A stretch of DNA of 64,000 nt. Origin: an uncultured bacterium. GTDB taxonomy: Bacteria > Omnitrophota > Omnitrophia > Omnitrophales > Abzuiibacteriaceae. The stretch spans positions 32,001-96,000 of the forward strand of contig CAYLXA010000007.1 of NCBI GenBank assembly GCA_964387845.1. The letters run 5' to 3'. The notes under the pieces were generated by a model that was given only the letters and a program-made list of their open reading frames with translations, ran no database searches and was not told the origin of the DNA. Of this stretch, positions 8,331 to 41,375 are shown piece by piece. Position numbers and translations under genes: made by a program. The first letter of the stretch is position 1; every line of letters begins with the position of its first letter.

Positions 8331-10345
<2,015 letters not shown>

Positions 10346-12375: not shown

Positions 12376-13008
12376 ATGACAAAGCGAGACTTTCGCGAAA
12401 TTGAATTCAAGTGGTCTGTAAAATCTGCAAAAGAATTTGCTATTTTCCTTCATCATGCCAAAAAAATGGGTATCCGAATCGGTCCTGCGAAAAAAATTTC
12501 GATCGTGGATACGTATTTGGATACCCGAAACGGAATGTTTGCAAAATCCGGCATCAAAACCAGAATCCGGCGCGCCAATCAAAAATGGGAGCTGACGCAA
12601 AAGCGTATGAGCAAGCTCCGAAGAGGCCTGGCGAGACGTCAGGAAAAAACAATACGTTTGCCAAATTTTGATTCGGTGATTCAAACCATTCAATATGCTT
12701 CCAAAGAATTCCTTCAGGAATTTTTATGCGGAAAGCATGCCTGCGTGCTTTTCACAATCCGCAATCAACGGATTGCGAGAAAGTTGAAAATAACCCGAAA
12801 GACATCGGCCGAACTCTGCTTTGATCAAACCGTGATAAAACGCGGAAAAAAATCCGTTGTTTTGAAAGAAATCGAACTCGAATTTTTAAAAGGAAGGTTT
12901 TCGGAATTTAAGAAATTTATTTCGGCAATCACCCACTCATCAAGCCTCAAGCCCGCCAAAATTTCCAAAGTTGCGACTGCGCTCAAAACTTTCGGGCTTA
13001 AAACATAA
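12376..13008 (+). CDS. CYTH domain protein (triphosphate tunnel metalloenzyme-like)
   Basis: 210 aa. N-terminal REIEFKW resembles the CYTH EIE[RK]KF signature. SD-like AGAGGG upstream. Divergent from the SixA-like gene. Confidence 0.5.
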   Translation: MTKRDFREIEFKWSVKSAKEFAIFLHHAKKMGIRIGPAKKISIVDTYLDTRNGMFAKSGIKTRIRRANQKWELTQKRMSKLRRGLARRQEKTIRLPNFDSVIQTIQYASKEFLQEFLCGKHACVLFTIRNQRIARKLKITRKTSAELCFDQTVIKRGKKSVVLKEIELEFLKGRFSEFKKFISAITHSSSLKPAKISKVATALKTFGLKT

Positions 13009-30467: not shown

Positions 30468-31568
30468 TCAACGGATTTTCACAACCGCTTGTCCAAGTGC
30501 CGGATTTTCAATTAAGTTCTCGTAATGAAAAAAAGCACAGCCGCGGCCGCCTGCGGCGTGGCACAATTCCGTCTGCCTGGCAAAATCTTGCGGAACATTC
30601 AGAAGTTCATAAGCACCGATTCCGATATTAACCTTCCTGAAATCTGTAACGCGCAAGCGCGCATCCTCGATTTGCTTGCGGAACGCCTCCGGCTCGCGCT
30701 TGTAACTCATGATCGTCACAAAATCAATGAGCCCGCTTTCAATCCAATGCGGCCAATCCTGGAAAGCTTCATGATACGCGCGAATATAAGACATGCAACC
30801 TGTTGTGGATACTTGAATGCCCGGACGGATGGAGCGGGCTTTTTGAATTAATTCCGTAAGCAATTCCGTTACTTGTGTGCGCTTCCAGTTTTGCCAAGTC
30901 TCGCTTTTCTCCTCAATCACTTGAATGCCCGTTGCCTTCTTGAACCGTTCAACATTAACTTTTGTAAATCCATAATGCGGATTTTGATCCGGATAGCGGA
31001 TGTAATCAAATTGAATTCCGTCTAAAGCCGGATAAGTTTGAACTATCTCACCCACGATTTTCACAAGCTCTTCCCTGACTCTAGGATCGCCGGGTTCTAG
31101 AAAATATTGGTTATCGATTTTGTAATCTTGAATGGTTCTTTTGTCCTGAAGATTTTTTGTCAAGACGTCGGGGCCGTATTTCTGAAGAAGCGGCGCATTT
31201 TCATTAGCACTCAGGCTGAGCAGATTCAGCCAAGCATGGACTTCGATTCCTTTTTGATGCGCTTTTTGAATCAAAAGCCGGAACGGATCTTCGCCGACAT
31301 TTTTGAAGGCTTGATGATAGAGAGCGGAATCTGCCGCTTCGAACGGAAAATAGGATTTACCCGCACGGTAGATCTGGACAAAGAGAGTTTTGATTTGTTT
31401 TTGCTCGGCAAATTCAACCAATTCGGTGATTTCCCGGGCATCGGAAAGCGGAAAAGGATCTTGGATCATGGATATAAATAAGCTGCGCTCAACTGATAAT
31501 TCTGATTTTACGTCAGTGGGAAATATAGAGAGCAAGCATACCAGAATCAGCAATATCCCTTTTTTCAT
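30468..31568 (-). CDS. glycoside hydrolase-like family 10 (GHL10/DUF187) lipoprotein
   Basis: 366 aa. Signal peptide. GIEVHAWLNL and DGIQFDYIRYP blocks typical of GHL10 TIM-barrel proteins. Confidence 0.6.
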   Translation of the reverse strand: MKKGILLILVCLLSIFPTDVKSELSVERSLFISMIQDPFPLSDAREITELVEFAEQKQIKTLFVQIYRAGKSYFPFEAADSALYHQAFKNVGEDPFRLLIQKAHQKGIEVHAWLNLLSLSANENAPLLQKYGPDVLTKNLQDKRTIQDYKIDNQYFLEPGDPRVREELVKIVGEIVQTYPALDGIQFDYIRYPDQNPHYGFTKVNVERFKKATGIQVIEEKSETWQNWKRTQVTELLTELIQKARSIRPGIQVSTTGCMSYIRAYHEAFQDWPHWIESGLIDFVTIMSYKREPEAFRKQIEDARLRVTDFRKVNIGIGAYELLNVPQDFARQTELCHAAGGRGCAFFHYENLIENPALGQAVVKIR

Positions 31569-31578
31569 AGTAATCTAA

Positions 31579-32157
31579 TTATCGGATGGATTTTACGTCT
31601 CTGTAACGGAAGCAATCCGTTAAATGGTCGTTCACCATTCCCGCCGCTTGCATGTAAGCGTAGCAAATGGTAGAGCCCACGAAGGTAAAGCCGCGCTTTT
31701 TGAGGTCAATGCTCATCGCGTCGGATTCTTTGGTTTTGGCAGGAACTTGCTTGAAGGATTTCCAGCGGTTTTGCAGTGTTTTGTAATTCGTAAAGCGCCA
31801 GATATATTTATCAAAAGAACCGAATTCTTTTTGGACTTCTAGAAATGCTTTGGCATTTTTAACAGAGCCCCAGATTTTCAGCCGGTTGCGGATGATTCCT
31901 TCGTTTTTCATCAAAGCTTGAAGCTTTTGATTCTTAAATTTCGCAATGGCTTGAGGATTGAAATTGCTAAACGCTTTCCTGAAATTCTCGCGCTTGTGCA
32001 AAATCGTCCGCCACGAGAGCCCCGCCTGAAACGCATCCAAAATCAGAAATTCAAAGTGTTTTCGGTCATCATGCACCTGGTTTCCCCACTCTTGGTCGTG
32101 ATAGTCGATCATTAATTGATCATCTGACGGCCACGGACAACGTTGGACTGTGTTCAT
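31579..32157 (-). CDS. tag: DNA-3-methyladenine glycosylase I
   Basis: 192 aa. CPWPSDDQLMIDYHDQEWG...FEFLILDAFQAGLSW Tag signature including the zinc-binding Cys/His. Confidence 0.88.
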   Translation of the reverse strand: MNTVQRCPWPSDDQLMIDYHDQEWGNQVHDDRKHFEFLILDAFQAGLSWRTILHKRENFRKAFSNFNPQAIAKFKNQKLQALMKNEGIIRNRLKIWGSVKNAKAFLEVQKEFGSFDKYIWRFTNYKTLQNRWKSFKQVPAKTKESDAMSIDLKKRGFTFVGSTICYAYMQAAGMVNDHLTDCFRYRDVKSIR

Positions 32158-32159
32158 TA

Positions 32160-33815
32160 TTATTTTCCTAAAATTTTCCGGCTTTTCTCAATCGCATCTT
32201 CAATTGTATCAAAGAAATTTTCCGAGCCAATCAAATTATAAAGTTCGCTGGCTTTCAAAGCCTCAAGTGGCTGCTTTTGAATGCCGGCGATCATCAAATG
32301 AATATGGCTTGCGTGCGACTTTCTGACAAATTCTTTAAGAGCACGGACACCGGTAGAATCCATGACAGGCACATGGCGGAGTCTCAGGATTCTAACTTTC
32401 GGCGGCTTGGAAACCACGCGCGCCGCTTCTTCAAATTCATGCGCCACCCCAAAAAAGAATGGCCCGTTAATTTCATAAACATCCACATCTTTCGGCACTT
32501 TGACGTGGTCGATATCGCTAGCATCATCTTCCGGAATTTCTTCATCTTCATCCACCAGGCGGATTTTCGTCACTTTGCTCATCCGGTGCATAAATAAAAA
32601 TAGGGACAAAATCATGCCGACTTCAATCGCGACGGTGAGATCAAATATCACCGTGATCAAGAAGGTAATAACAAGCACGGCAGCACTGCCGCGGAGACCC
32701 TTGAGGTCCGCGCGAAAAGAGCGCCACTCGCTCATATTATAAGCCACTACCGTCAGGATCCCGGCCAAACATGCCAGCGGGATCAATTTTGCCCATTGGC
32801 CAAAGAAAAGCACGATCGCCAAAAGCGTAACGGCATGCACAATGCCGGCAACCGGCGTTCTTCCCCCATTCTTGATGTTGGTTACAGTACGTGCAATTGC
32901 GCCTGTGGCCGGAATGCCGCCAAAAAGCGCGGAACCCAAATTGGCAGTTCCCTGCGCGATTAACTCCATATTGGAACGATGCTTTCCGCCGATCATGCCG
33001 TCTGAAACCACCGCCGAAAGAAGCGATTCGATAGCACCCAAAAGTGCAATGGTAATCGCGGGCTGAATTAAGGCCTGGATATTTGCAAAATGAAATTCGG
33101 GAAAAGACGGCGCAGGAAGCGAGCGCGGCAGATTGCCAAATTTGCTGCCGATGGTTTCCACCGGCCAATGAAAATACTGAACGGCCAAAACCGACAAAAT
33201 CAGCGCGATGACCGAACCTGGTACTTTGCGTGAAATTCTAGGCCAAACCGCAATTAATAAAACGGTTCCAAGTGCGATTGCGAAGGCGTAAGGATTGAAA
33301 GTGTGCAGATTTTCAAAAATGACTTTCCATTTATCCAGAAAATCCGCCGGGACTTTGTCGATTGAAAGCCCGAGAAAATCTTTCACCTCGGATGAGAAAA
33401 TCACCACCGCGATTCCGCTCGTAAAACCTACAATGACAGGATGCGGGATTAGCTTGATGGCATTGCCAAGTTTCGCGATGCCCATTGCGATCAATAAAAT
33501 CCCGGCCAAAAATGTTGCAATAATAAGCCCGTCAATCCCGTGCTGCTCGACAATGCCGTAAACAATCACGACAAAGGCACCCGTCGGCCCGCCGATTTGC
33601 ACGCGGCTGCCGCCCAATGCGGAAATAATGAATCCTGCCACCACTGCGGTAACAATGCCCTTCTCCGGCGAAACACCGGACGCAATGGCAAACGCAATCG
33701 CAAGCGGCAGCGCCACAATGCCCACAATGACGCCGGCCATCAGATCTTGGCCGAATTGTCTGTGCGAATAATCTTTTAACGTTGTAAAGAGTTTTGGGTA
33801 TAGCATTAAAATCAC
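32160..33815 (-). CDS. SulP family anion (sulfate) permease with C-terminal STAS domain
   Basis: 551 aa. SulP TM core plus STAS domain. Confidence 0.88.
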   Translation of the reverse strand: MILMLYPKLFTTLKDYSHRQFGQDLMAGVIVGIVALPLAIAFAIASGVSPEKGIVTAVVAGFIISALGGSRVQIGGPTGAFVVIVYGIVEQHGIDGLIIATFLAGILLIAMGIAKLGNAIKLIPHPVIVGFTSGIAVVIFSSEVKDFLGLSIDKVPADFLDKWKVIFENLHTFNPYAFAIALGTVLLIAVWPRISRKVPGSVIALILSVLAVQYFHWPVETIGSKFGNLPRSLPAPSFPEFHFANIQALIQPAITIALLGAIESLLSAVVSDGMIGGKHRSNMELIAQGTANLGSALFGGIPATGAIARTVTNIKNGGRTPVAGIVHAVTLLAIVLFFGQWAKLIPLACLAGILTVVAYNMSEWRSFRADLKGLRGSAAVLVITFLITVIFDLTVAIEVGMILSLFLFMHRMSKVTKIRLVDEDEEIPEDDASDIDHVKVPKDVDVYEINGPFFFGVAHEFEEAARVVSKPPKVRILRLRHVPVMDSTGVRALKEFVRKSHASHIHLMIAGIQKQPLEALKASELYNLIGSENFFDTIEDAIEKSRKILGK

Positions 33816-33965
33816 TACCGATAGGGTTAGTCAGAAATTGGCAAACGCCGCTTTATTAGACCATTCGGTAGGGTGAAATGCAATAGCGGAGAATGGAGAT
33901 TTGATTCAGCGCGGCACTGTCAGTAACGCCTCTGGATTATGTAATGTTTTTGTCTGCCGATTTTT

Positions 33966-34631
33966 TCATTTGAATCTTGCCTGCTTGATCCGGTCCAAAC
34001 TTTCGTTTTTGTGCATGCGCTCATCCAGGCCGATATTCCGGAACAAATCGGCCAGCGAATTAAAAGAGCCGTAATCGTTTCGAAAATTGCTTTCAAACGG
34101 CTCTGTTTCAAATTGAGGACTTTGCTTCACAAATTCCATATATTCATGCTCGGCGTGGTCTTCAAAATCCGCGTTGAGCAAATAACTCCAATCTGGCTTT
34201 ATCACATACAAAAGCCAGCTCACATGGTAATACAAAAATGCCACAAATTGCGGAAGGATCCGGTAGAGAAAAAAGTTTTCCTGGATTGCTTTTTTCTGTG
34301 TGAGCTCCTCTAAAATCAAAAGGTGCCATTGTTCGTTGTCTTGCTGCGCGCGCGATTCGCGCACAAATTCAAATATTCGCCGCGCGAAATGAGGTTCAGC
34401 GTAAGTGTGCGTCATCGCAATGTAGGCCACATGCTCCCACGATTGATACGGCACGCGTGCAATGACTTCGAGCACTTTGAATTTCGAGAAGGTCCTCGAC
34501 TTGCCGTAGACAAGATCCATAAAGGCAAACAGCGCTTTTCCGAACAAGCCATAGCGGCGCCTCGGAGAATTCAGGGTCTTTTGCTGTTCGGTTTTGAGGT
34601 CTGTGGAATTGACCGCGGATTTCATAGCCAT
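33966..34631 (-). CDS. alternative oxidase / PTOX family di-iron carboxylate protein
   Basis: 221 aa. LEVIARVPY, NEQWHLLILEE (ExxH), EDHAEHEY (ExxH) and DERMH blocks are collinear with AOX/PTOX iron-binding helices. Confidence 0.55.
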   Translation of the reverse strand: MAMKSAVNSTDLKTEQQKTLNSPRRRYGLFGKALFAFMDLVYGKSRTFSKFKVLEVIARVPYQSWEHVAYIAMTHTYAEPHFARRIFEFVRESRAQQDNEQWHLLILEELTQKKAIQENFFLYRILPQFVAFLYYHVSWLLYVIKPDWSYLLNADFEDHAEHEYMEFVKQSPQFETEPFESNFRNDYGSFNSLADLFRNIGLDERMHKNESLDRIKQARFK

Positions 34632-34652
34632 TATTTTACGCTTAATGATTGA

Positions 34653-37022
34653 TTATTTCTCAGGGATTATTGAAACATTGTCATACGCCGTATTGGCACG
34701 ATAACTCTTAAAACCAACACGCCCTGATTGAAATGTGTCATCCTTGACTTTAATTTTATGCCTATCGTTGAGGTAAACCTGAATTTTTCTTTCGTTGACC
34801 GCCACTCTCAATTGATACTTCCTTCCGATTTCAATCAAATTTTCACGTTCCGCCAAATCGACCACTACCCCTTGATGTTTCTTTTGCAATCGAATTTTAT
34901 TCTTAGAAGCATCCAAAAGGACTGCATAATAATTATCCGGATCTTGATATCGGAAAAGCAGGCCCGCAACATTGCTTCCAACCATAGCTTCATTGCCCAG
35001 CTGCACATCAGCTTGAAAAACGTAATTATCCCAATCTTGACGCTCCGACAACGCAATCGCATCCAAGAAATCAATATTCTTAGCCTTGTAATTAATTTTA
35101 AATTGCCTTTCCACCGGCAAGCCAAAACTATACAAGTTTGCATGATGGGCAGAATCGGCAGATCCTTGCCAATATGCGTTTCTTAAATCCCAATGATACG
35201 AATCTTTTCTGACGGCATGCACTTCCATCCGATCCTGATAAATTTCGACGTAATGGTATTCTCCCATATTATTAAAACCAGTCGTATGAACATAGTAAAT
35301 GCTATCCAGCTTGCTTAAACCGCTGATATGAGAATGCCCCGCAAATTCCGCGACAACACGCCTGCTAGCCTCCAAAATATCTTTAACATCGTTCGAATTC
35401 CCGCCTCCCCACCAATAACCATAAGCGTCCCCATCATCACGGACAGCAGCATGCCCGTAATGACAAAACAAAAACGCTTTCTTGGTTGGATGCGCTGCTA
35501 ATTCATTTTTTAACCATACTAAATAATTTGAAAAGTCGGAACCGTTTTGCTTTCCCTTAAACATAGTAGCACCGTCTTCGGCAAGAAATAAAAAATCGCC
35601 GAACGTCCAACTATAGGAAAGCTTGTTAGGGCCAAATACTTCTGACCAAAAATGGCCCCTCGGGAATCCCAGCCGAAGATCTTCTCCCCAATCGTGATTG
35701 CCTAAAACCGGATAATAAGGAACCGAGAGTTGATCCAAAACATTCTTGACGGATTCTAATTCCGACAAAGTACCGTTGTCCGTCAAATCACCGGTAATTA
35801 CCACAAAACTTGGCAGCGGAAAATCCCGGCTTTGATTAATATCAGCAACAAAACTCTGAAGATCCTTCAAACTATTGTTATCAGTATCACGAATATGGGT
35901 ATCTGATATCACCGCGAATGAAAAAAGAGGTTTTCCCCGAACTTCGATAGGGATAACCGACCGGTGACTTTCTTCATCCAGCACAACCGTATAAGTTCCC
36001 GCTTCGTTCGCATTCATAGAAAAAGCATCCGGAAATAAAAGTTTACAATCTGATGATAACGAACAATCTGTCAAAGAAATCGGCCCATGCACTTTACCCG
36101 AAGGACTAATTGCAGACACTTGGGCTTCGCTTAAATTTGCCGTCGATGAAAAATGAAGTGTCGAATGTCCGCCGACATACAAATGCGACGGCCTTGCTTT
36201 GATTGTTGTGATTGAAAGTACGGTAACTTCATCAAACACAGAAACCCCGCCCTGAGAACCAATCCCTATCGAGCCGCTTGGGTAAGATTGATCATAAACA
36301 CGTATATCAGGATCTTGATCTTCGGGCTTGTCGAACCACACTTTAATTTCAGGGCCCACCGCTGAAATCGCGACGGTCGACAATTTGCCGTGTTCCGGTT
36401 TTGGAACTGAAATACTCGCAAGTCTCCGGTCGAATAAACCATTGGTTCGCGCATATAAATCAAGCGCTCCATCATTGCTCAGCACTAAAGCGTAAGAGTT
36501 GTCATTTTTTTTGCCGGTCATCGTTAAACGAAAATAAACAATGGAAGAATTGAATGGATTTTGGTCAATTTTGCTTCCTAATTTTACGCGGATTAGATAA
36601 TCAGATTGGCTAAACTTGCCTTTTTTGTCGGGAAGCATTAAAGCAAGATTGTGTTTTTTATCATCAAAAAAACATTGTCCGTCTTTCAGATTGAAAGCAC
36701 CGCGTTTCTTGGTCCATTGTTTTTTCGTATTCTTCGGATTGCTGAAATCATCATGGAATAATTTTTGTTCATTTTCATTTTGAACATCCCCATGCCCGGC
36801 CCGTATTCCAAAGCTTTCTCCAACTTCCCGTTGCTGATACTGCCCATTAACCGCTACCCAAGCTCCGGAAACAGGGCTCCATGCGGTTGAATGGTTGGAA
36901 AAATCATCTGAAAATGTTGCATTGACATTCGCAGTTTGTAAACAAAAAATACTTATTAACGCCAGTATCGTACGCACATTGCGCTCCGCCAAACTTTTAA
37001 TTTTTTGTTTTACTTTCTTCAT
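34653..37022 (-). CDS. secreted DUF1080(jelly-roll) - metallophosphoesterase - DUF1080 protein, paralog A
   Basis: 789 aa. Signal peptide. Calcineurin-like motifs VISDTHIRD, VVITGDLTD, GNHDW, GHSH. N- and C-terminal DUF1080/LamG-like domains (NYYAVLLD, GRVGFKSYRANTAYDNVSI). Confidence 0.7.
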   Translation of the reverse strand: MKKVKQKIKSLAERNVRTILALISIFCLQTANVNATFSDDFSNHSTAWSPVSGAWVAVNGQYQQREVGESFGIRAGHGDVQNENEQKLFHDDFSNPKNTKKQWTKKRGAFNLKDGQCFFDDKKHNLALMLPDKKGKFSQSDYLIRVKLGSKIDQNPFNSSIVYFRLTMTGKKNDNSYALVLSNDGALDLYARTNGLFDRRLASISVPKPEHGKLSTVAISAVGPEIKVWFDKPEDQDPDIRVYDQSYPSGSIGIGSQGGVSVFDEVTVLSITTIKARPSHLYVGGHSTLHFSSTANLSEAQVSAISPSGKVHGPISLTDCSLSSDCKLLFPDAFSMNANEAGTYTVVLDEESHRSVIPIEVRGKPLFSFAVISDTHIRDTDNNSLKDLQSFVADINQSRDFPLPSFVVITGDLTDNGTLSELESVKNVLDQLSVPYYPVLGNHDWGEDLRLGFPRGHFWSEVFGPNKLSYSWTFGDFLFLAEDGATMFKGKQNGSDFSNYLVWLKNELAAHPTKKAFLFCHYGHAAVRDDGDAYGYWWGGGNSNDVKDILEASRRVVAEFAGHSHISGLSKLDSIYYVHTTGFNNMGEYHYVEIYQDRMEVHAVRKDSYHWDLRNAYWQGSADSAHHANLYSFGLPVERQFKINYKAKNIDFLDAIALSERQDWDNYVFQADVQLGNEAMVGSNVAGLLFRYQDPDNYYAVLLDASKNKIRLQKKHQGVVVDLAERENLIEIGRKYQLRVAVNERKIQVYLNDRHKIKVKDDTFQSGRVGFKSYRANTAYDNVSIIPEK

Positions 37023-37076
37023 AAATTTGTTGAGTGCCAGACGAAATTGCTTTGAAGTATCAAATAGAAGAATCTA

Positions 37077-37185
37077 AAAACTAGAGAATGGCTCTCTGCA
37101 CAGCCAATCGCTACTCCTGGTCAAAATCAAAAGGCGCCACTGTTCGTTTTCCTGCTGCGCGCGCGATATGGCCGCCACCTTTTAA
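37077..37185 (-). pseudogene. remnant of an AOX/PTOX-family gene between the two phosphoesterase paralogs
   Basis: 45 nt (37130..37174) match 34319..34363 with 4 mismatches, counted by eye. Translates to SRAQQENEQWRLLIL versus SRAQQDNEQWHLLIL in the intact gene. In-frame stops lie on both sides. Confidence 0.45.
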
Positions 37186-37191
37186 CAGCGC

Positions 37192-39567
37192 TCACTTTTT
37201 AACTACTACATTGTCATAAAAGGTATGCGCCCGATAACTTTTAAATCCAATTTTTCCTGACGAAAAAGCTGAGTCGGTAGCTTTAATTTTTAATACATCA
37301 TTGAGATAAACCTGGATTTCATTTCCTTTTGTCACAATCCGCAATTGATAAACCTTATCCTGCTGAACCAATGTTCGTTCACTGCCTAAATCAGCCACTA
37401 CCCCCTTTTGCTTCTTCTGCAGCTTAATTTCACGCCTTGATTTGTCTAATAAAACCGCATAATAATTGTTGGGGTCGTGATAATGAAAAACAAGTCCTGC
37501 CACATTATCCCCGACCAACAACTCCTTGCCCAACTTAATATCAGCTTGAAACATATAATCACGCCAATTGCTATTTCTGGACACCGAAATCGCATCCAGA
37601 AAATCGATGGTTTTTGCGCCGTAATCAATCTTAAATTGTCTTTCAATCGGCAAGCCAAAGCTGTAAAGTTTGGTATTGTGGGTAGAGTCTGCGGATCCTT
37701 GCCAATATGCTTCTGCTAAATCCCAGCGATATGAGCTTTTCTGCACTGCATGCACTTCCATATGATTTTTGTAAATTTCAACATAGCGATATTCTCCCAT
37801 ATTATTAAAACCGGTTGTATGAACATAATAAATATTATCTGATTTTTTTAAGCCGCTGACATGAGAATGCCCTGCAAATTCAGCCACAACACGCCCGCTG
37901 GCCTCCAGAATATCCTTAACATCGTTCGAATTCCCGCCGCCCCACCAATAACTAAAAGCGTCTCCATCGTCCCTGATCCTGGTATGTCCATAATGACAAA
38001 ATAAAATAACCCGTTTGTTCTTATTTGATGCCAACTGATGCCGCAGCCATTTTGTATAATTTAAAAAATCAGGATCATTCTTTTTACTACCATACGTTAC
38101 ACTTGAATCTTCAGTCAAAAAAAGAAAATCTCCATAACTCCAACCATAGAAACGTTTATCCGCACCAAAAACATCTGACCAGTGTTTGCCTTTTGGTGTT
38201 TTTCTTCGAAGGTCTTCGACCCAATCATGGTTTCCAAGAATGGGATAATACGGAATTAAAAGCTGATCAAAAGCATCTTTAACAATTCGCATTTCATCCG
38301 TCGTTCCACTATCAGTCAAATCTCCTGTAATTACGACAAAAGCTGGAAGCGGGAAATGCCGGCTCTTATTTGTATCGGAAACAAAATCGCGGAGGTCCTG
38401 CAGGTCTTGATCGTGATGATCACGGTAATGAGTATCGCTGAGTACCATAAAAGAAAACAAAGGCTTTTCCCTGACTTCAAGCAATAAAATGGTAGAATTT
38501 TGTCTGTCATTGACCGTGACCTTATAAGTTCCTAGTTCATTCAGATTCATGGAAAACGCATCCGGAAACGTTGCAGAACAACTTGATTGCCCCAAGCAGT
38601 CAGATGGATAAATCGGACCATAGATTTTCCCGGAAGGACTAACGATGGAAACCTGGATAGATTCAAAATCCAGGCTTGAGCTAAAACGAAGAGTTGTTTT
38701 ACCGTCTTGATAGAAATGCGGCGGCCATGCTTCAGCTTTCAATACCGGCAGGACTTCGATGTCATCAAATTCAAACATGCCCCCATAAGCTCCTAAACCG
38801 ATTGTGCCGGATGGAAACGAGCGATCATGCACAATTATATCCGGAATTTGATCTTCGGTTTTATCAAGCCAAATTTTAATTTCAGACCCGACAACCAAAG
38901 CAATAACATTATAAGCCTCTTTGTTCTCGGGAATGGCAACGCTAGCCAGCCGGTCACCAAATTTTCCATCAATTTTTTTATATAAATCAAGAATTCCTCT
39001 TCTCCGGAAAAGCAGAGCATAGGAATTGTCATCTTCCTTATTCGCCATCGTAAGCCGGAAATAAAGAATGGCGGCCCCAAAATCACCAGGGGCTTTCTTG
39101 CACGCAATGCTAGCTTGAATTCGATAGTCAGACCACTGCATAAATTTTTTGTCAGAAGGAATGCTTAAGGCAATGTCGGAACCTTTCGTTATATACCGAT
39201 CATTTTCAATGATAAAAACTCCCCGTTTATTAGCCCACAATTGATTGCTAGTAGTATTACTATTAAAATTATCAAAAAATAATGTTTGCGAATCTTTTGG
39301 TTCAAATCCTGCGCTTGGATTATCCGGGACTATTTCATAACTGTCGCCCACGGTTCTCTGCTGATATTCTCCATTGATCTGGACCCAGGCGCCGGACACA
39401 GCCTGCCAATGAGCAGGATTTACGGCTGAGAAATCGTCTGAAAAGACAACTGATGTTTGTTCAATATTTTGAGAGCAACCGGCCGCTAGAGCAAGAATAA
39501 TCCATACGGCTTGGGTTAATAAATGGTGGGTCACTTTTCCAGAAATTCCCTGAGAGAGTAATTTCAT
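37192..39567 (-). CDS. DUF1080 - metallophosphoesterase - DUF1080 lipoprotein, paralog B
   Basis: 791 aa. Lipobox LAAGC. Same motif set as paralog A (VLSDTHYRD, GNHDW, GHSH). Roughly 50% aa identity to paralog A along the whole length. Confidence 0.7.
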   Translation of the reverse strand: MKLLSQGISGKVTHHLLTQAVWIILALAAGCSQNIEQTSVVFSDDFSAVNPAHWQAVSGAWVQINGEYQQRTVGDSYEIVPDNPSAGFEPKDSQTLFFDNFNSNTTSNQLWANKRGVFIIENDRYITKGSDIALSIPSDKKFMQWSDYRIQASIACKKAPGDFGAAILYFRLTMANKEDDNSYALLFRRRGILDLYKKIDGKFGDRLASVAIPENKEAYNVIALVVGSEIKIWLDKTEDQIPDIIVHDRSFPSGTIGLGAYGGMFEFDDIEVLPVLKAEAWPPHFYQDGKTTLRFSSSLDFESIQVSIVSPSGKIYGPIYPSDCLGQSSCSATFPDAFSMNLNELGTYKVTVNDRQNSTILLLEVREKPLFSFMVLSDTHYRDHHDQDLQDLRDFVSDTNKSRHFPLPAFVVITGDLTDSGTTDEMRIVKDAFDQLLIPYYPILGNHDWVEDLRRKTPKGKHWSDVFGADKRFYGWSYGDFLFLTEDSSVTYGSKKNDPDFLNYTKWLRHQLASNKNKRVILFCHYGHTRIRDDGDAFSYWWGGGNSNDVKDILEASGRVVAEFAGHSHVSGLKKSDNIYYVHTTGFNNMGEYRYVEIYKNHMEVHAVQKSSYRWDLAEAYWQGSADSTHNTKLYSFGLPIERQFKIDYGAKTIDFLDAISVSRNSNWRDYMFQADIKLGKELLVGDNVAGLVFHYHDPNNYYAVLLDKSRREIKLQKKQKGVVADLGSERTLVQQDKVYQLRIVTKGNEIQVYLNDVLKIKATDSAFSSGKIGFKSYRAHTFYDNVVVKK

Positions 39568-39736
39568 TGCAATCGCCTACCGCACTGTGCCATCGAAAAT
39601 GGTCGGAGCGAGAGGGGTCATGCGGTACGAGGCATTCCTTGTGCCGCGACAGCACGCACTCACGCATCGGCGTGAGTGTCACGTTCTCGCCCACGATTTC
39701 GGTAGCTCCACGTCGCAGCTTCGCTGCTCCTGGAGC

Positions 39737-39790
39737 GATACTCGCCTATCATTGCTATTCACCTAGAACTATCTACTGTAGGCGAGTATC
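39737..39790. repeat. 12-bp-stem hairpin (GATACTCGCCTA / TAGGCGAGTATC, 30-nt loop) abutting the tRNA-Pro 3' end
   Basis: Perfect inverted repeat read directly. The right arm overlaps the tRNA discriminator base. Confidence 0.6.
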
Positions 39791-39862
39791 GGGGCGAGAG
39801 GAGTTGAACCTCCGACCTCACGGTCCCGAACCGTGCGCTCTACCAAGCTAAGCTACGCCCCG
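39789..39862 (-). tRNA. tRNA-Pro (anticodon CGG), CCA not encoded
   Basis: Hand fold: CGGGGCG UA GCUU AGCUUGGUA GAGC G CACGG UUCGGGA CCGUG AGGUC GGAGG UUCAACU CCUCU CGCCCCG A. 7-bp GC-rich acceptor stem. Anticodon loop UU-CGG-GA. Confidence 0.75.
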
Positions 39863-39914
39863 ATGTTTGCCTACTTTAGAACTTCCCAGATGTTTATTCA
39901 TTAAAGGCAAACAT
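39863..39914. repeat. 10-bp-stem hairpin (ATGTTTGCCT / AGGCAAACAT, 32-nt loop) abutting the tRNA-Pro 5' end
   Basis: Perfect inverted repeat immediately upstream of the tRNA 5' end on the transcript strand. Confidence 0.55.
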
Positions 39915-39915
39915 C

Positions 39916-39945
39916 GCCCTGATGCGGCTTGTGCTGAATCAGGGC
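39916..39945 (-). terminator. possible terminator-like hairpin downstream of the gshA-like gene (GCCCTGAT-N14-ATCAGGGC)
   Basis: 8-bp GC-containing stem ~60 nt after the gshA stop. Followed by GAUGUUUG rather than a clean U-tract. Confidence 0.25.
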
Positions 39946-40007
39946 TTCGCCAATTCGAATAAGTCCAGATATGGTCTAAAAAGAAGATTGATAATATACC
40001 AAGGAGG

Positions 40008-41375
40008 TTAGATTTTCAAATACTGAATCAACGCCTTTCGGCTCTTGCCGAACGAACCCTTCCAAAGCGAAACCAATTGATCCGCTTGGGTTTTCCCGGT
40101 TTTTAGAACTTCATGCTTCAAAGGCTCCAGGAAAATCCGCTCATCCTGCTCCGCCGCGTTGAAAGACGGATGCTTCTCGAGGCCTTTTTCGCTTAACTTC
40201 ACAAGCTGCTTGGCAATATCCAAAATGGGTTTGCCTTTTACTTTTGCCTTCAGGCCTTGAGTTTCGACATCTTGATGAAGTTTGAGGAAATCTTTCTCGG
40301 TCCACTTTTTGATTAATGCGCAGGCTTCAAGCCGCGCTTCATCGTCATACAAAATTCCCTTCCAGAACGCCGCAACCGCCGGAATCATATGCGAACGCTG
40401 GCCGTCAGCGCCGCGGATTTCCAAATACTGCTTGAAACGCGCTTCCGGAAATACGGTGCTTAAATGAAGCGCGAAATCTTCCTCGGTGGCATGTTCGCCG
40501 CGAAAACCTTTTTCGATGAATTTCCGGAATGTTAAATTCGGAATATTAATCCATTTCCCTTTTCGAACAATGAACATCATCGGAAGGTCTAATAAATAAT
40601 TTAAATATGCATCGAATGAAGCTTGCGGGCACAGAAGCTTTTCCAAGAGGCCGGAGCGCTGGGGATCCGTGTAACGCCAAATATGGAGCCGTTCGGTCGC
40701 AAATCCGCTCGGGCGGCCCTTCGAGAATGAGGAATTGGCAAACATTGCCGATACGATGGACGCGAGGCGCATCGCGATGCACATTTTTTCAAACGCGTCA
40801 TGTTCGCTCGAATAATCAAACGAGACTTGATTGGAAGCCGTCCGCTTCATCATGTCGTGCGCCAGGCGGCCGCGCTTTCCCAAATATTTTGACATAATGC
40901 CGTAACGAAACTTCGGGACCCACTCGATTTTTGCAGTCTGGCTAAAAGGCTGGATTCCGTAAGCCAAAAATTCAATGTGGCCGATAAACTGCGCGACGGT
41001 TTTTAATTGAAAGAAAAAATCATCCAGTTGGGCGCGGATTTGATGAACGCTTTTAACGGGCTCAGCGCTCAGTTCGATTTGACCTCCGGGTTCCAATGCA
41101 ACAAAATTAGAACCCTTCTTCAAACCGATCGTATGATCATTTTCGATGATTTTTTCGTAGCCGAATTCATACGCCAGTTCATTCAATACTGCTTCAATAC
41201 CCCGCATTCCCGAATATGGGAGCGCTTCACCGGTTTTATCGTCAACGGCCAACAGTTCGCACTCAACGCCCACCAGCCGCTCGGAAGTCGGCTTGGCAAA
41301 ACGGTGAAAATATTGCTGTAAAACATTAACTGATTTAAGGCGCTTTTGATGGTCTGACTGAAGAAATGTGCTCAT
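40008..41375 (-). CDS. glutamate--cysteine ligase, GCS2 (plant/alpha-proteobacterial) type
   Basis: 455 aa. N-terminal VGVECELLAVD block and overall collinearity with GCS2-family gamma-glutamylcysteine synthetases. Divergent partner gshB. Confidence 0.7.
   Translation of the reverse strand: MSTFLQSDHQKRLKSVNVLQQYFHRFAKPTSERLVGVECELLAVDDKTGEALPYSGMRGIEAVLNELAYEFGYEKIIENDHTIGLKKGSNFVALEPGGQIELSAEPVKSVHQIRAQLDDFFFQLKTVAQFIGHIEFLAYGIQPFSQTAKIEWVPKFRYGIMSKYLGKRGRLAHDMMKRTASNQVSFDYSSEHDAFEKMCIAMRLASIVSAMFANSSFSKGRPSGFATERLHIWRYTDPQRSGLLEKLLCPQASFDAYLNYLLDLPMMFIVRKGKWINIPNLTFRKFIEKGFRGEHATEEDFALHLSTVFPEARFKQYLEIRGADGQRSHMIPAVAAFWKGILYDDEARLEACALIKKWTEKDFLKLHQDVETQGLKAKVKGKPILDIAKQLVKLSEKGLEKHPSFNAAEQDERIFLEPLKHEVLKTGKTQADQLVSLWKGSFGKSRKALIQYLKI

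Follow-up and report, generated by a model that had tools for sequence, protein, structure and literature searches.

Tandem, predicted exported metallophosphoesterases with lectin-type flanking domains in an uncultured Omnitrophota bacterium: putative glycan-directed phosphodiesterases with a probably interrupted CBM66-like module

What two adjacent and diverged copies of a putatively exported phosphoesterase might act on, and how such proteins are put together, are the questions raised by a 64,000-nucleotide stretch of DNA from an uncultured Omnitrophota bacterium (Abzuiibacteriaceae; assembly GCA_964387845.1, contig CAYLXA010000007.1, forward-strand positions 32,001 to 96,000), which we refer to as the window and number from its first letter. 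A first-pass annotation of the window, made from the sequence alone, had described tandem genes at 34653..37022 and 37192..39567 for proteins of ~790 amino acids (aa), a signal peptide on one copy and a lipobox on the other, and the phosphoesterase motifs DTH, GDLTD, GNHDW and GHSH. We recovered all of these: gene B encodes 789 aa and has the signal peptide, gene A encodes 791 aa and has the lipobox (both signals seen by inspection), and the motifs were found in the translations, as SDTHIRD, TGDLTD, GNHDW and GHSH. We regard envelope or extracellular phosphodiesterases targeted to glycans as the most likely function of the pair, and hold this reading about as firmly as we doubt it. The data directly show which domains the proteins contain, that the metal-ligand motifs are intact, the homology to CBM66 and GpdQ, how old the duplication is and how rare the family is; export and anchoring, the nested construction, the glycan binding and the phosphodiester substrate are the parts that we infer. 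As to construction, each protein probably contains one CBM66-like domain that is interrupted after its third strand by an insertion of ~580 residues comprising a lectin-type domain, an immunoglobulin-like (Ig-like) domain and the phosphoesterase. The two genes and their parts are as follows.

37192..39567, minus strand: gene A (791 aa, lipoprotein type), whose ortholog is the only copy on the related metagenome contig L001
34653..37022, minus strand: gene B (789 aa), the paralog whose signal peptide is of the ordinary kind
39475..39567, minus strand: gene A signal peptide and lipobox (residues 1-31, LALAAG-C31; inspection of the translation)
36918..37022, minus strand: gene B signal peptide (residues 1-35; cleavage predicted at VNA/TF, by inspection; a helix at residues 2-27 in the structural model)
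39334..39450, minus strand: gene A N-terminal hairpin (residues 40-78)
36801..36917, minus strand: gene B N-terminal hairpin (residues 36-74, FSDDFS..W..VSGAW...NGQY.QR.vGeSF), the proposed first strands of the C-terminal CBM66-like domain
38746..39282, minus strand: gene A N-terminal jelly-roll domain (residues 96-274; residues 142-272 cross-hit at 29 bits by the hidden Markov model (HMM) of the C-terminal domain)
36210..36767, minus strand: gene B N-terminal jelly-roll (lectin-like) domain (residues 86-271), homologous to the C-terminal domain
38464..38742, minus strand: gene A Ig-like domain (residues 276-368)
35931..36209, minus strand: gene B all-beta Ig-like domain (residues 272-364)
37744..38460, minus strand: gene A metallophosphoesterase domain (residues 370-608)
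35208..35927, minus strand: gene B metallophosphoesterase domain (residues 366-605; ligand positions D374, H376, D412, N442, H521, H563, H565)
37600..37740, minus strand: gene A family-specific tail (residues 610-656)
35067..35207, minus strand: gene B family-specific tail (residues 606-652, W.GS.DS.H...Y.fGLP.ERqF)
37195..37599, minus strand: gene A C-terminal DUF1080/CBM66-like body (residues 657-791)
34656..35066, minus strand: gene B C-terminal DUF1080/CBM66-like body (residues 653-789), without first strands of its own

Both products follow the order signal peptide, short beta-hairpin, jelly roll, Ig-like domain, metallophosphoesterase, family-specific tail and C-terminal jelly roll. An AlphaFold2 model built from 21 sequences reached a mean predicted local distance difference test (pLDDT) of 85.3 and a predicted template modelling score (pTM) of 0.84; a model built from 5 sequences (mean pLDDT 57.5, residues 1-140 unmodelled) was discarded. 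The first-pass annotation had proposed a three-part protein, with the phosphoesterase between two DUF1080 domains. Pfam bore out the core and the C-terminal DUF1080 domain (3keto-disac_hyd, PF06439; 36.5 and 34.7 bits, cutoff 26.8), and gave no match to the N-terminal ~235 residues even at E <= 10. Comparison of the N-domain and C-domain alignments by hhalign (probability 98%, E 2.5e-13, 125 columns) and reciprocal HMM cross-hits (C-domain model on N-domain, 29 bits, E 2e-9 in a 26-protein set, and vice versa) indicated that the N-terminal domain (residues 86-271 of the gene B product) is a diverged homolog of the C-terminal jelly roll. Both flanking domains are thus of the DUF1080/lectin type, the N-terminal one as a remote homolog by profile comparison and HMM cross-hits only. 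The count of three parts did not survive, as the Ig-like domain (272-364), the conserved tail (606-652) and an orphan N-terminal hairpin (36-74) had been missed. What results is a new arrangement of known domain types, not a new kind of system.

The family profile matched the CBM66 module of the B. subtilis levanase SacC at E 2e-18, with profile positions 671-793 pairing with CBM66 residues 41-162. Pairwise identities to this module were 29-31%, and the C-terminal domain has the same fold as the solved CBM66 module. For comparison, an accepted CBM66 module has merely 24% identity to the SacC module (PMC12678895), and CBM66 members are binding modules whose ligands are fructan ends or (lyase-treated) xanthan side chains (PMC11002231). 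These comparisons support flanking domains of lectin type, the C-terminal one nearest to CBM66. The Pfam name of DUF1080, 3-keto-disaccharide hydrolase, would allow the DUF1080 domains to be catalytic themselves, making the proteins bifunctional glycan hydrolases and phosphoesterases. We consider this very improbable, because the nearest characterised relative by both sequence and structure is the non-catalytic CBM66, which the literature describes as a binding module. In SacC, the CBM66 (PDB 4AZZ, 4B1L, 4B1M; a DUF1080/PF06439-type fold) is C-terminal on an exported hydrolase, as in the window proteins. The window module differs in being joined to a phosphoesterase instead of a glycoside hydrolase, and in that its first strands are apparently encoded ~580 residues upstream, at the mature N-terminus.

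Several alignments point to such an interruption. The Pfam DUF1080 match on the C-terminus spans only profile positions 48-187 of 187, and a weak second stretch of the family profile, the N-terminal FSDDFS..W..VSGAW..NGQY segment, pairs with CBM66 residues 6-40. The hairpin alone aligned to CBM66 residues 6-43 with 13/37 identities. Scored pairwise against CBM66, the hairpin plus the C-terminal body reached 183, the body alone 146 and the N-domain 58. Hairpin plus body also aligned end to end with the N-domain, over 169 columns at E 6e-18, compared with the 125 columns at E 2.5e-13 obtained without the hairpin. The N-domain has its own start strands, and the unit duplicated in P0004, P0134, P0136, P0137 and P0138 spans the second start motif to the FDD..V end. 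Start strands are contiguous in the canonical DUF1080 repeats of other proteins; unlike the window module, the domain of stand-alone DUF1080 proteins and of the repeats in giant surface proteins (PDB 3HBK, 3IMM, 3U1X; P0139-P0281) is an unbroken unit of ~170 residues that carries its own start strands. In the 21-sequence model the hairpin was built as strands (pLDDT 88-90). It scored at least 12 bits in 11 of the 16 relatives with a C-domain and in none of the 10 without one (Fisher p = 7e-4, kinship ignored). In P0144, which keeps the C-domain and has neither N-domain nor Ig domain, the hairpin apparently stands directly before the phosphoesterase (by eye; HMM 4 bits, E 0.04). If this topology is correct, a binding module of ~170 residues split by a three-domain insertion of 580 residues would be an unusual case of domain nesting.

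Some points weaken the case for the interruption. Its basis is how far the alignments extend and which domains co-occur, and five divergent relatives with a C-domain show the hairpin by eye only; a second-round hairpin HMM failed to recover these five. Two further comparisons did not discriminate. In a Pfam scan of chimeras joining the hairpin to the C-terminal body, the DUF1080 match was extended to profile position ~11, and a copy B control carrying the start of the N-domain did nearly as well. Similarly, HMMs of the hairpin and of the N-domain start were not told apart on the upstream strands of 431 canonical DUF1080 repeats.

Pfam Metallophos (PF00149) matched residues 368-566 of the gene B product and 372-570 of the gene A product (E 1e-14 to 2e-15; 56 and 58.1 bits, cutoff 21.5). 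The family profile found GpdQ among the PDB sequences at E 2e-8, and the catalytic domain superposed on the class III phosphodiesterase/GpdQ-like fold. Residues D374, H376, D412 and N442 of the gene B product align with D8, H10, D50 and N80 of GpdQ, which we take to be metal ligands there; ligands in the first three motifs were assigned by alignment to GpdQ and the remainder by motif order. Each window copy has a ligand residue at every one of the seven metal-binding positions. D374, H376, D412, N442/H443, H521, H563 and H565 were invariant among five close relatives, and across 21 relatives D374, D412 and H565 remained invariant, H376, H521 and H563 nearly so, with N442 as the exception. The phosphoesterase is apparently still active.

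The fold and the motif set DxH, GDxxD, GNHD, H, GHxH are shared with GpdQ of Enterobacter aerogenes (PDB 2DXL, 3D03) and with the class III phosphodiesterases (Rv0805, CpdA, SpdA, Lmo2642), but the identity is merely 17-22%. The window proteins are furthermore multi-domain and predicted to be exported, and their 47-residue tail (W.GS.DS.H...Y.fGLP.ER.F) lies outside the sequence alignment to GpdQ. This tail was detected behind the phosphoesterase domain of each of the 26 family proteins examined, only faintly in the remotest of them, and relatives with other accessory domains have it too. The core looks like a GpdQ/class III-type phosphodiesterase, yet is a member of no named equivalog. Purple acid phosphatases likewise place a beta-sandwich N-domain before a metallophosphoesterase, but their motif GDxxY, with its chromophoric Tyr metal ligand, is absent from the window proteins, both copies having GDLTD. 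Matches to NCBIfam antiphage families (~21 bits, cutoffs 790 and 420) reflected only the shared N-terminal phosphoesterase motif and were set aside.

A non-enzymatic surface adhesin or structural protein, with the phosphoesterase fold serving as a scaffold as in Plasmodium GAP50, would be hard to reconcile with the retention of every metal ligand in both window copies and their closest relatives. Moreover, no part of the two paralogs is better conserved than the phosphoesterase domain with its tail, and we rate this explanation as very improbable. Hardly more credit is given to a lipid-headgroup phosphodiesterase of the SMPDL3/acid-sphingomyelinase type, which would act on membrane or outer-leaflet phospholipids or on lipoglycans. 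Matches to SMPDL3 and acid sphingomyelinase were weaker than those to GpdQ, Lmo2642 and 2NXF; the window proteins have no saposin-like or lipid-binding domain, and their accessory domains are of carbohydrate type.

The export signals were read by inspection only. The gene A product has the permissive lipobox ILALAAG-C31, and the gene B product has a K-rich n-region, a hydrophobic core and the VNA/TF site. The lipobox Cys is also found in the relatives P0002, P0005 and P0134, and orthologs of the gene A product carry LLVG-C and LFGG-C (again by inspection). Both proteins are thus predicted to be exported, with copy A lipid-anchored. Gene B may begin not with the ATG at 37022 but with a GTG at 36977 that has GGAG ahead of it; the product would then have 774 aa, the length of its database copy (P0001).

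As phosphodiesterases directed to glycans, both gene products would be exported binuclear-metal enzymes working in the envelope or outside the cell, copy A lipid-anchored and copy B soluble. The catalytic unit would comprise the GpdQ/class-III-like metallophosphoesterase and its 47-residue tail, with the Ig-like domain ahead of it and the two homologous lectin-type jelly rolls around it. The mature N-terminus would supply the first beta-strands of the C-terminal CBM66-like module, so that the cassette is inserted within the module and the chain ends are tied together. The lectin domains would dock the enzyme on a glycan polymer, which could be the cell's own or a neighbour's exopolysaccharide, a capsule or a wall glycopolymer, and the enzyme would cleave phosphodiester (or phosphomonoester) groups on or near the docked polymer. 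Identity between A and B is highest in the phosphoesterase and tail (66-74%) and lowest in the N-terminal lectin and Ig domains (43-46%), a pattern that fits a split in anchoring and glycan target; the lectin and Ig domains of the two copies have possibly diverged toward different targets. Most descriptions of carbohydrate-binding modules concern glycoside hydrolases and lyases. If the assignment is right, a binding module joined to a phosphodiesterase would suggest that uncultured bacteria turn over phosphate-linked glycans of the envelope or matrix enzymatically.

The genomic contexts of relatives bear on this assignment. The gene ahead of P0004 is Wzy_C, and the cluster around them also has GT4 glycosyltransferases, a sulfatase, an acyltransferase and exosortase EpsH/EpsI. 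Upstream of P0005 and P0134 lie genes for methyltransferases and GT4, a Wzx-like Polysacc_synt gene, DUF1616 and an Rce1-like gene. P0135 adjoins BacA and an epimerase, P0138 carries a fused PG_binding_1 (peptidoglycan-binding) domain, and the context of P0136 gave no clue to function. The cell-surface phosphodiesterase on glycans suggested by the first-pass annotation accordingly finds partial backing in the export signals, the lectin-type flanks, the filled metal-ligand positions and the relatives in polysaccharide clusters.

A different substrate class is suggested by the surroundings of the window genes themselves. A nutrient-scavenging phosphodiesterase acting on extracellular cyclic or linear nucleotides, or on extracellular DNA, with lectin domains that merely tether it to the cell's own envelope glycans, would agree with the housekeeping context and adjoining transport genes in the window, and with the wall-anchoring PG_binding_1 domain of P0138. 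However, the window proteins score far under every equivalog cutoff, and GpdQ and acid sphingomyelinase-like enzymes are just as close, so that fold likeness selects no substrate. The relatives within polysaccharide-synthesis clusters also speak against scavenging, and two lectin modules seem excessive for mere tethering. We judge nucleotide scavenging to be a possible but rather doubtful account.

The glycan-directed reading, for its part, has to be weighed against a number of observations that tell against it. The polysaccharide-synthesis context is confined to three relatives from about two independent lineages, and the window and L001 genes have housekeeping neighbours (glutathione synthesis, SulP, Tag, MgtE) instead of a glycan cluster around them. 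The NCBIfam equivalog cutoffs were missed for SpdA (37.2 bits, cutoff 400) and for CpdA (PRK11148; 18.2 bits, cutoff 225), and the closest structures include enzymes that act on nucleotides, such as Lmo2642 and 2NXF. In P0137, P0138, P0140, P0151, P0153 and P0155 the Asn of GNHD is replaced by Ala, Gly or Thr with the other ligands kept; these six substitutions may mean that the metal site or activity is altered and that catalysis is not universal in the family. Finally, the literature yielded no activity or binding data for any family member.

One relative, P0140, is encoded on a contig classed as viral (L085 1-6912; IMG/VR UViG_3300032173_000643), directly upstream of open reading frames (ORFs) that resemble tail genes. 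Read from their order and size, these would be a major-tail gene, a chaperone and a 1318-aa tape measure, and a phage may therefore carry the P0140 phosphoesterase. Tentatively, and with considerably less assurance than for the function of the pair, we propose that these proteins form an undescribed class of glycan-directed extracytoplasmic phosphodiesterases with a cassette nested in a CBM66 fold. On this proposal the window pair would remodel or degrade a phosphodiester-linked surface glycopolymer, and phage-borne relatives would use the enzyme as a depolymerase. It would imply a phosphodiester-linked surface glycopolymer in an uncultured lineage without a known polymer of this kind.

The family proved to be rare. 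A word-indexed search of 5.8 billion proteins returned five full-length proteins, two of which are the window's own genes, and the same search with the 21-sequence alignment returned the same five only. An exhaustive HMMER search of 1.84 billion representatives yielded ~24 clusters with the phosphoesterase-plus-tail core, ~16 of which also have the C-domain. Extra modules vary within the family (PKD, FN3, beta-helix, PG_binding_1, duplicated lectin domains). On its own, the C-domain is frequent in giant surface proteins, where it forms repeats. The GTDB species representatives contained no full-length relative, giving only phosphoesterase-domain matches at <=35% identity, and no paper in the literature joins DUF1080 and metallophosphoesterase in one protein. 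The first-pass annotation had named a common and already characterised architecture as something that would refute it; the family is instead rare (five full-length proteins, ~24 clusters with the core) and uncharacterised in the literature. As the family is small and uncharacterised, one expressed member would give a function to all.

Genes A and B lie on the same strand, 169 nucleotides (nt) apart, and their products align end to end with 424/793 identical residues (53%, E = 0). The single ortholog in L001 is 67% identical to copy A and 56% to copy B, and the outgroups P0004 and P0005 stand about as far from A as from B or the L001 ortholog. These values indicate the tree ((A, L001), B), in which the duplication is older than the split of the two genomes and L001 has lost B. 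The dN/dS ratio (nonsynonymous to synonymous substitution rates, NG86) was about 0.07-0.13 with dS saturated, consistent with purifying selection. The earlier description of an old duplication, ~50% identical and kept under selection, therefore agrees with the 53% identity, the placement before the genome split and the low dN/dS, read with the saturation of dS in mind.

L001 has the same gene order as the window: FtsI, GshB, GCS2, tRNA-Pro, one phosphoesterase gene, SulP, Tag, GHL10 and MgtE. The flanking proteins are 85-93% identical between the two, except GHL10 (66-67%) and GshB (73%). After its single copy, at the position of gene B and the neighbouring alternative oxidase (AOX) gene in the window, L001 has an AOX pseudogene remnant (12434-12829; residues 24-128 and 194-220, 78-84% identical), which indicates that the second paralog was lost and the AOX gene decayed in the L001 lineage. 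The first-pass annotation had taken the locus for an accessory block. This did not hold, as L001 shows the same FtsI-to-MgtE order, with tRNA-Pro, the phosphoesterase gene and an AOX remnant in place, and no tRNA-derived repeat brackets the genes. A tRNA-integrated genomic island was ruled out on the same two grounds, L001 synteny and the absence of bracketing repeats: no tRNA-derived repeats flank the phosphoesterase genes on both sides, the sole repeat lying between the tRNA and gene A in both genomes. The surroundings of the pair contain these further features.

33966..34631, minus strand: AOX-family di-iron protein ORF, 221 aa; a neighbour, not a functional partner
39788..39863, minus strand: tRNA-Pro(CGG), upstream of gene A, in the same position in L001
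39603..39615, minus strand: 13-nt repeat of the tRNA-Pro 3' end (1 mismatch) within the 220-nt leader of gene A, possibly left by an old integration

The AOX-like neighbour and the tRNA-Pro were both present where the first-pass annotation had put them. The AOX-family ORF begins 21 nt past the end of gene B and matches Pfam AOX (PF01786) at 36.1 bits against a cutoff of 22.7. By eye, the di-iron motifs LEV, NEQWH, EDHAEHEY and DERMH can be picked out; set beside the alternative oxidase/PTOX family, the protein is short (221 aa). It is very strongly conserved, with >4300 homologs at 72-80% identity, a range noted for more than a hundred proteins. The few named homologs come from metagenome-assembled genomes labelled Omnitrophica or Elusimicrobia, and some are labelled ubiquinol oxidase. 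These lineages are largely anaerobic, and the AOX protein possibly serves in oxygen detoxification there. Its homologs elsewhere lie in unrelated neighbourhoods, and adjacency in this lineage is all that links it to the phosphoesterase genes. Relevance of this neighbour to them is not supported, and a functional link was rejected, the AOX family being very common and having other neighbours elsewhere.

The G+C content is 0.40-0.43 across both paralogs (positions 34000-39000) and 0.45-0.50 in the flanks, a modest drop, and the GC skew is stronger over the same positions, at about -0.15. The region between A and B had no significant structure and no terminator, a promoter/terminator scan gave a chance-level result, and an Rfam scan of 33700-40100 had the tRNA as its sole match. 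The GHL10 (PF02638) gene at 30468-31568 (minus strand) encodes a product whose N-terminus is hydrophobic. With 66-67% identity to the L001 ortholog, this product has diverged at the pace of phosphoesterase copy A, which sets it apart from the remaining neighbours.

The tRNA-Pro(CGG) lies 220 nt upstream of gene A. The leader between them (39568-39787, minus strand) is 220 nt long and G+C-rich, and folds at -90 kcal/mol (z = -3.2 vs shuffles); it has no Rfam match and is patchily conserved in L001. The last 13 nt of the tRNA (CCTCTCGCCCCGA, 39789-39801) recur at 39603-39615 (minus strand, 1 mismatch), followed by CCA-like bases. The chance expectation is 0.07-0.09 matches per sequence, and the repeat has the look either of a scar from an old integration or of a fragment of a tRNA 3' end. 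It occurs in L001 as well, where the two copies (9749-9761 and 9916-9928) are exact, and over both sequences it lies ~170-186 nt downstream.

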